Shown here: in pieces, positions 63,378 to 63,710 of the stretch
Position numbering within the stretch: the stretch's first letter is position 1
Layout: every line of letters begins with the position of its first letter
From: Escherichia coli
Lineage (GTDB): Bacteria; Pseudomonadota; Gammaproteobacteria; Enterobacterales; Enterobacteriaceae
NCBI RefSeq assembly: GCF_045037415.1
Contig: NZ_CP173438.1
Length of the DNA: 64,000 bases
Strand: one strand, 5' to 3'
The notes under the pieces: model-generated
What the model was told of the DNA's origin: nothing
What the model saw: the letters and a program-made list of their open reading frames with translations, nothing else
The model's database searches: none
Position numbers and translations under genes: made by a program

Positions 63378-63710
63378 ATGTTAAAAAAACAACTACTATC
63401 AATATTTGAAGCACTATTATATATAATGCTTACTTATTGGTTAATAGATTCTTTTTTTGCTTTCAATAAGTATGACTGGATGCTTGAGTCGGGAGACAAT
63501 ATTTGCAGTATACCTTCTGTTTCAGGCGAAGATCGTATATTACAAGCAATGATTGCAGCATTTTTTCTTCTGACACCACTTATTATTCTTATCTTAAGAA
63601 AACTCTTTATGCGGGAAATGTTCGAGTTTTGGCTATATGTATTCTCGCTCGTTATTTGTCTGGGTTGTGGTTGGTGGCTTTTTTGGGGACGGTTTATATT
63701 TTGCTATTAG
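63378..63710 (+). CDS. ygiZ: Small three-helix inner membrane protein, candidate immunity protein; positional equivalent of K-12 ygiZ
   Basis: 110 aa ORF with three hydrophobic segments; immediately downstream of the putative effector on the same strand; same size and position relative to qseC as the K-12 ygiZ gene (identity not sequence-verified). Confidence 0.55.
   Translation: MLKKQLLSIFEALLYIMLTYWLIDSFFAFNKYDWMLESGDNICSIPSVSGEDRILQAMIAAFFLLTPLIILILRKLFMREMFEFWLYVFSLVICLGCGWWLFWGRFIFCY

Follow-up and report, generated by a model that had tools for sequence, protein, structure and literature searches.

Orphan immunity genes of type VI secretion systems (T6SS) are known from the auxiliary clusters of Vibrio cholerae and from the acquired immunity islands of the Bacteroidales. 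The gene considered here, ygiZ of Escherichia coli, would be a further case of this kind. It encodes a small membrane protein and lies between mdaB and qseC, close to the end of a stretch of 64,000 nucleotides of E. coli contig NZ_CP173438.1, referred to below as the window. As regards gene architecture, a close counterpart is the Ssp6/Sip6 pair of Serratia marcescens, in which a cargo effector of about 210-230 amino acids (aa), found in Enterobacteriaceae and sometimes encoded beside an orphan hcp gene, is directly followed, with an overlap of 4 nucleotides, by the gene for a small helical membrane immunity protein, the genomic location of the pair being variable (PMC6889166). No paper connecting ygiZ with type VI secretion was found in the literature search, and the term DUF2645, which designates the protein family of YgiZ, appeared in none.

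In the window, ygiZ is the third of three genes, after an hcp gene and the gene of a putative effector. On this arrangement YgiZ is probably, at a rough probability of 70%, the cognate immunity protein of an Hcp-borne effector with a lysozyme-like predicted fold, and an orphan in K-12 and in most E. coli. The immunity function is inferred from gene context: ygiZ is the last gene of a mobile cassette composed of hcp, a putative toxin gene and ygiZ and is therefore most likely the antidote gene. Two features by which T6SS effector-immunity loci are recognized are both present, namely the linkage of the effector to a delivery gene, hcp, and a small, conserved and co-directional gene directly downstream.

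The YgiZ protein and the cassette in the window

The open reading frame (ORF) at positions 63378-63710 of the forward strand begins with ATG and encodes 110 aa. A preliminary description of this DNA, made from the sequence, had supposed that it is the orthologue of K-12 ygiZ, and the comparison bears this out: the product is identical to YgiZ of K-12 (an MG1655-derived strain) at 101 of 110 positions (92%) without gaps (BLASTP, E=6e-67), and the gene occupies the same mdaB-qseC site. Residues 13-109 match the Pfam family DUF2645 (PF10840; E=7.8e-11), and RefSeq gives the name 'ygiZ: DUF2645 family protein' to this ORF in the near-identical genomes of sequence type 131 (ST131) strain 2822 and of UM146.

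The same description had taken the 110-aa product at the K-12 ygiZ position for a three-helix membrane protein, on which ORF, synteny, structure prediction and the distribution of hydropathy and charge all agree. The AlphaFold2 model, with a mean pLDDT (predicted local distance difference test) of 81, consists of three long helices (residues 2-27, 50-77 and 81-107) and shows no globular domain, the helices being connected by a loop of 22 residues and a turn of three; a three-helix membrane architecture is likewise what hydropathy and charge distribution suggest. From the charge bias, YgiZ is predicted to have its N-terminus inside and its C-terminus outside: two Lys/Arg and no Asp/Glu are counted at the N-terminus, two Lys/Arg and five Asp/Glu in the loop 28-55, and three Lys/Arg in the turn 74-83. 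The features of a Tgi-type immunity protein, that is a signal peptide or lipobox together with a globular periplasmic domain, were not found in YgiZ, and a Foldseek search of the model against the PDB returned no meaningful match. Across 17 members of the family, down to 26% identity, five residues are invariant (Y32, C43, W100, G104 and C109). Since the predicted periplasmic loop contains C43, and the C-terminal tail, likewise predicted to be periplasmic, contains C109, a C43-C109 disulfide stapling the loop may reasonably be proposed from the model. The family is tiny: of 1.84 billion protein cluster representatives, 27 belong to it at E<=0.001, a size that fits the dedicated partner of one effector family.

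The mdaB-qseC interval of the window is filled by three co-directional and closely packed genes, hcp, a 236-aa ORF and ygiZ. The start of the effector gene follows the hcp stop after 2 bp, the ygiZ start follows the effector stop after 6 bp, and no terminator-like site is found between the three genes. The whole block is AT-rich, with a GC content of 27-39% against about 50% in the flanks. The first gene encodes a full-length Hcp/TssD protein, matching TIGR03344 over residues 1-157 of 159 (E=5.5e-59; 198.8 bits against a cut-off of 58.9), and its product is labelled Hcp family protein by RefSeq in near-identical genomes. No T6SS core cluster is present within the 64-kb window.

The effector and its linkage to DUF2645 across genera

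Loci were gathered through look-ups of effector homologues, look-ups of DUF2645 homologues and a scan, with the effector alignment as query, over 100,044 species, each represented by one genome. In total, 25 effector loci were obtained, 22 from the scripted scan and three others (L028, L029 and L032). In 25 of 25 an hcp gene lies directly upstream of the effector gene and a DUF2645 ORF directly downstream, in at least eight genera: Escherichia, Citrobacter, Pseudocitrobacter, Pectobacterium, Serratia, Chania, Erwinia and Buttiauxella. An association of the ygiZ family with hcp and effector genes, which the preliminary description had proposed to survey, is thus found at every effector locus examined. 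Outside Escherichia, the effector ORF either runs into the DUF2645 ORF, by 1-14 bp, or abuts it directly, compared with the 6-bp gap in the window.

The site is shared by some of these genera and not by others. The cassette is found at mdaB-qseC in Escherichia, a cryptic clade included, in Citrobacter and in Pseudocitrobacter; it adjoins pagP in Pectobacterium, lies between yfbT-like and yfbR-like genes in Erwinia and beside transposase fragments in Chania, and is inserted at other unrelated sites in Buttiauxella and Serratia, where one copy is carried on a 75-kb record that is possibly a plasmid. The recurrence of the same trio at unrelated genomic sites argues that hcp, effector gene and DUF2645 gene form a mobile unit.

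Immunity proteins usually diverge fast relative to their neighbours. In each of the 12 cassettes set against that of the window, DUF2645 is the protein that has changed most: it is 28-64% identical to its window counterpart, or 89% in L028, the nearest cassette, from cryptic Escherichia, while Hcp and the effector range over 55-96%. Two complete cassettes are carried by a single strain, Serratia sp. H1w, on two contigs (L020 and L022), with effectors 56% and 63% and DUF2645 proteins 37% and 46% identical to those of the window; these two diverged pairs suggest that effector-immunity specificities have diversified. In two loci the effector gene is damaged and both hcp and ygiZ are intact. In a Citrobacter locus (L003; Logan ERR10930846, 4297-4994) the effector is split into ORFs of 150 and 90 aa, and in an Escherichia locus (L029, 1156-1794) it is N-terminally truncated to 212 aa. 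Both are apparent intermediates of decay toward a state with ygiZ only.

A separate observation concerns the Chania cassette (Chania multitudinisentens RB-25; L010, 8287-8714), where a gene with a pesticin domain is found about 3 kb downstream, near the transposase fragments. Pesticin is a lysozyme-like bacteriocin, and the region may be a small island of antibacterial toxins.

Homologues of the 236-aa effector, at 54-74% identity, come from Citrobacter, Pectobacterium, Erwinia, Serratia, Chania and metagenomic sources. In an alignment of 20 sequences, E82 (WIE[SAV]GG; WIES in the window) is invariant in 20 of 20, the following residue being Ser in 14 and Ala or Val in the others. Also invariant are the motifs T111-S112-x-G114-S115...Q119 (TSxGSxxxQ) and R187-Y-N-R-G191, as well as an N-terminal block with C12, F19-R-K-W22, E24, D26 and W30. 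The E82, TSxGSxxxQ and RYNRG motifs resemble the ES, GLMQ and AYNAG motifs of family-1 lytic transglycosylases. An AlphaFold2 model built from this alignment (mean pLDDT 74.8; 85-96 in the core, residues 1-29 and 86-114 poorly modelled) places E82 at the end of helix 72-83. The predicted fold is alpha-helical and lysozyme-like, and the T6SS effector Tse3 is among its best structural matches. From the model, Glu82 is a candidate catalytic residue, and a periplasmic peptidoglycan target is plausible given the resemblance of the fold to lysozymes and lytic transglycosylases. A search of the effector sequence against the PDB gave only chance matches, to algal light-harvesting complex I (LHCI) proteins.

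Full-cassette, ygiZ-only and empty sites in Escherichia coli

The distribution within the species was determined in 5,426 complete E. coli genomes, a collection biased toward clinical lineages. The gene ygiZ is present in 4,598 of them, and hcp together with the effector gene in 1,261, always in single copy and almost always on the chromosome; a query with the whole cassette likewise finds 1,261 genomes at a coverage of at least 80%, and the cassette hcp alone 1,261-1,263. Three states can thus be distinguished, the full cassette (about 23%), ygiZ alone (about 61%; 3,337 genomes, among them K-12) and neither (about 15%). No further full-length copy of hcp was found in E. coli by blastn in distant mode, which is sensitive to about 65-70% identity; the few extra matches are weak or partial, an example being a 104.8-kb plasmid record of strain C439, where 96 nt (20% of the query) align at 77% identity. 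Among sequences described as plasmids, the cassette gave a single megablast match and hcp up to three blastn matches.

Two genomes without ygiZ were sampled, an O157:H7 strain and a swine isolate, and both have a clean 109-bp spacer between mdaB and qseC. Both spacers lack the window segment 62034-63755, and at the empty O157:H7 site homology stops at window position 62033. No other toxin/immunity family was seen at mdaB-qseC in the E. coli genomes; the only other insertions are of the insertion sequences (IS) IS1 and IS5. In strain 1449 (NZ_CP184069.1) IS1 lies within the cassette hcp, and in strain TUM9812 (NZ_CP128926.1) IS5 splits ygiZ, two examples of what looks like ongoing inactivation at the locus. 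The idea that the interval is a hotspot of toxin/immunity turnover, put forward in the preliminary description, was not upheld, because a single cassette family occurs there, in full, ygiZ-only and empty states (the 109-bp spacer in the ygiZ-less genomes sampled), with an occasional IS. The site reads as one cassette in three stages of decay and not as turnover among several.

The orphan state is well illustrated by K-12, which, as had been supposed, keeps only ygiZ of the three-gene cassette. K-12 matches the window up to position 62088 and then has 159 bp unlike hcp or the effector gene, before homology picks up again inside the first eight ygiZ codons. A second orphan type of E. coli and a cryptic Escherichia clade share this junction and have a homologous segment upstream of it, and the orphan arrangement therefore arose once and is old. 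Over the orphans, the segment that replaces hcp and the effector gene measures 159-200 bp, with a 39-bp indel between the types (L001, 2660-2818; L024 and L026); an origin of this segment from the cassette is not detectable.

The ratio of nonsynonymous to synonymous substitution rates (dN/dS, Nei-Gojobori method) of ygiZ, estimated from six sequences with few sites, is 0.23 for the window against K-12; a pair of orphan lineages gives 0.34, and comparison with Citrobacter gives 0.16-0.25, so that purifying selection after loss of the effector is consistently indicated. The gene therefore shows what is expected of an orphan immunity gene, being present without the effector, intact and under purifying selection.

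The orphans also bear on a different assignment, in which YgiZ would be an accessory factor on the attacker's side, serving stability, Hcp loading or activation of the effector. To our knowledge, the adaptors and chaperones of the T6SS are soluble cytoplasmic proteins, unlike YgiZ with its three membrane helices and a conserved loop predicted to be periplasmic. Some T6SS effectors nevertheless depend on adaptor or chaperone genes encoded alongside, and YgiZ is strictly co-inherited with hcp and the effector. DUF2169 is an example of an adaptor/chaperone encoded next to a T6SS effector (PMC5874247). An accessory factor would be useless without its effector, whereas ygiZ is retained by itself, under purifying selection, in 3,337 E. 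coli genomes; nor does the cassette contain another candidate immunity ORF. This assignment is accordingly held to be very unlikely.

The features of the locus in the window are collected in Table 1. No consensus promoter was detected by a simple sigma-70 scan in the presumed promoter region of the cassette. The stem-loop at the point where ygiZ and qseC converge has a minimum free energy of -24.9 kcal/mol (z=-7.9 against shuffles); it is kept in K-12 and gone with the cassette at the empty O157:H7 site, and may be a bidirectional terminator or an RNA-stability element.

Table 1. Annotated elements of the mdaB-qseC locus in the 64,000-nucleotide window.
Feature	Coordinates	Strand	Basis or remark
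mdaB, left flank	61347..61928	-	100% protein identity to K-12 MdaB
Cassette 5' region, presumed promoter	62034..62178	+	GC 31-39%; upstream of hcp
Orphan hcp (tssD), 159 aa, presumed carrier of the effector	62179..62658	+	TIGR03344
Putative T6SS cargo effector, 236 aa	62661..63371	+	Lysozyme/lytic-transglycosylase-like predicted fold
ygiZ (DUF2645), 110 aa, putative cognate immunity protein	63378..63710	+	K-12 YgiZ identity, Pfam
Stem-loop between convergent ygiZ/qseC ends	63715..63748	.	Perfect 15-bp stem, no U-tract
qseC 3' end, right flank, gene continues past window end	63756..64000	-	Neighbour of ygiZ as in K-12

By synteny with the ST131 chromosome, the window is a segment of the type found in extraintestinal pathogenic E. 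coli (ExPEC), extending from ebgA to qseC. Right beside the hcp cassette, a second presence/absence polymorphism is formed by a block of about 7 kb (window ~53765-60957) of siderophore uptake genes between parE and ygiN, whose products are a TonB-dependent siderophore receptor, an iron-siderophore ATP-binding cassette (ABC) transporter of the FecCD type, specified by four genes, and a MurR/RpiR regulator; parE directly adjoins ygiN in K-12, whereas O157:H7 and cryptic Escherichia clades have the block as well. Further accessory loci of kinds typical of ExPEC are an aryl-sulfate sulfotransferase gene with dsbL/dsbI (window ~41971-45139) and a four-gene chaperone-usher fimbrial operon (34438-39410); their presence helps to place the window on a chromosome of the ST131/B2 type.

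The putative immunity function and known systems

Several observations weigh against the assignment of YgiZ as the immunity protein. Those immunity proteins to peptidoglycan-degrading T6SS effectors that are known to us (Tsi/Tai/Tgi) are soluble periplasmic proteins or lipoproteins, and a multi-pass membrane protein exposing only about 30 periplasmic residues is atypical for immunity to a peptidoglycan hydrolase. The effector itself has no NCBIfam match and no Pfam match even at E<=10, the SLT family (PF01464) included; about a quarter of its model lies below a pLDDT of 50, and the Foldseek E-values are weak (>=0.27). Of the designation 'peptidoglycan hydrolase' given to it in the preliminary description, what stands is the predicted lysozyme/lytic-transglycosylase-like fold, while membership in the Pfam SLT family does not. 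In Buttiauxella gaviniae ATCC 51604 (L021, 3710-4008) a frameshifted and stop-interrupted DUF2645 gene stands beside an apparently intact effector ORF; this effector is unusually divergent and changed at otherwise invariant positions (e.g. R20K), and the locus, the only one found to run counter to the immunity model, is either a decaying or silent cassette or a counter-example to strict dependence of the effector on immunity. At position 40 the K-12 allele has Gly (G40), in contrast to the Asp or Glu of 15 of 17 family members, and the specificity of K-12 YgiZ may have drifted. Finally, no relic of hcp or the effector gene was found in the 159 bp upstream of K-12 ygiZ, either by blastn or by a hidden Markov model (HMM) search of six-frame translations, and a simple recent deletion was therefore dropped as the origin of the K-12 state. 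The replacement segment of K-12 moreover holds a promoter of ygiZ's own, which has been mapped and is activated by BglJ-RcsB (PMC3950696). Given the missing relic and this promoter, the polarity of the change, loss rather than gain, is inferred and not proven.

The promoter also leads to the question of whether YgiZ is an envelope or membrane-stress protein unrelated to the effector, co-travelling with it for another reason or kept for housekeeping. BglJ-RcsB is a branch of the Rcs envelope-stress regulators (PMC3950696), and over-expression of ygiZ improves sabinene tolerance and restores cell shape (PMC7181518), a phenotype by which ygiZ is able to affect the envelope without any effector. 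The occurrence of orphan DUF2645 genes at three other unrelated sites (L013, L033 and L034) and the purifying selection on ygiZ where the effector is absent point in the same direction. On the other hand, an orphan immunity gene would be expected to have its own promoter and to be under purifying selection just as well, the family is tiny and of narrow taxonomic range, and most of its full-length members examined directly follow an effector gene, often overlapping it, at many sites. DUF2645 also outpaces its neighbours in divergence, which is unusual for a housekeeping membrane protein, and about 15% of E. coli, O157:H7 included, do without ygiZ. A role confined to the envelope is for these reasons considered improbable, though less so than that of an attacker-side accessory.

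If YgiZ is the immunity protein, the following course of events can be envisaged. In a strain with a working T6SS, the effector would be packed into the Hcp that the cassette itself encodes and shot into the periplasm of adjacent cells, where its lysozyme-like domain, with Glu82 as candidate catalytic residue, would cut the glycan strands of peptidoglycan. YgiZ would be seated in the inner membrane with a cytoplasmic N-terminus and a periplasmic C-terminus, and its acidic periplasmic loop of 22-27 residues, together with the short C-terminal tail and the putative C43-C109 disulfide, would form the effector-binding surface. Binding of an effector that is incoming or delivered by a sister cell would either block the active site or hold the effector at the membrane. 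Lineages such as K-12 would have lost hcp and the effector gene and kept ygiZ as an orphan immunity gene, which would protect them against cassette-carrying strains, e.g. ST131, CFT073 and UM146. How neutralization would be achieved, whether by a disulfide-constrained plug (cf. Ivy) or by sequestration at the membrane, is a matter of speculation.

The membrane location of YgiZ would be explained if the effector acted at the outer face of the inner membrane and not as a free periplasmic peptidoglycan hydrolase; YgiZ would still provide immunity, and the effector could attack lipid-linked precursors or nascent glycan strands or disturb the membrane through its conserved N-terminal region. Taken as a separate explanation this variant is judged unlikely, to about the same degree as a pure envelope role. 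A broader and tentative proposal, doubtful as a whole, is that the three-pass YgiZ represents a new class of immunity protein, in which a disulfide-stapled periplasmic loop is set against a lysozyme-fold effector, or else that the effector has its site of action at the membrane surface, with nascent or lipid-linked peptidoglycan as its target; as part of it, about 60% of E. coli, K-12 among them, would be protected against a weapon mainly of extraintestinal-pathogenic lineages and about 15% (e.g. O157:H7) would be susceptible, so that competition between strains in the gut would have a simple genetic determinant.

An immunity function of YgiZ would give a concrete and easily testable role to a K-12 gene and would define a new T6SS effector-immunity family, consisting of a lysozyme-fold effector without a Pfam model and of DUF2645, with a widespread orphan. 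The natural three-state polymorphism of E. coli (armed, immune only and naive) would offer a view of how immunity genes outlive toxins and of competition between phylogroups, and a membrane-embedded putative immunity protein could reveal a new way to neutralize a cell-wall enzyme or show such an enzyme acting at a new site.

Two published reports with related subjects concern other systems. The 'orphan hcp2B' operon of avian pathogenic E. coli (APEC) is a different locus, hcp2B-vgrG2-xmtU/xmtV (PMC5874247), and a structural-bioinformatics catalogue of T6SS effector-immunity pairs deals with PAAR-, VgrG- and Hcp-fused effectors and not with this type of cargo (PMC11148199).

In its proposed target the present pair is like the Tge/Tgi pairs (e.g. 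Tse3-Tsi3 of Pseudomonas aeruginosa). It differs from them in that the effector has no detectable sequence similarity to them, nor any Pfam or PDB sequence match, and is linked to an orphan hcp, and in that Tgi proteins are soluble periplasmic proteins or lipoproteins while YgiZ is predicted to be an integral membrane protein of three helices whose periplasmic loop is short. In architecture the cassette resembles Ssp6/Sip6, as it combines a small cargo effector with an orphan hcp and a candidate immunity protein that is small, helical and located in the membrane. Ssp6, however, is an ion-selective pore former for which no lysozyme-like features have been reported, and Sip6 has 67 aa and two helices (PMC6889166). 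Ssp6/Sip6 was not adopted as the family of the present pair, because a published HMMER list of 95 Ssp6 homologues includes no entry from Escherichia or Citrobacter, both carriers of the present cassette, nor from Chania (PMC6889166).

As regards mechanism, a speculative analogy may be drawn with Ivy, in which a short disulfide-constrained loop plugs the active site of a lysozyme fold, as the C43...C109-stapled loop of YgiZ might do; inhibitors of this sort shield the peptidoglycan of their own cell from a lysozyme-fold enzyme, but they are beta-rich proteins of the periplasm, either soluble or lipid-anchored, and have no relation to YgiZ in sequence or fold. Compared with the orphan immunity genes of V. 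cholerae and the Bacteroidales, ygiZ is a single gene at a fixed chromosomal site, present as an orphan in about 61% of the species, with no array or island around it and with a protective effect that is presumed. Like those orphans, it is kept without its effector, intact and under purifying selection, in strains that are possibly without the weapon.
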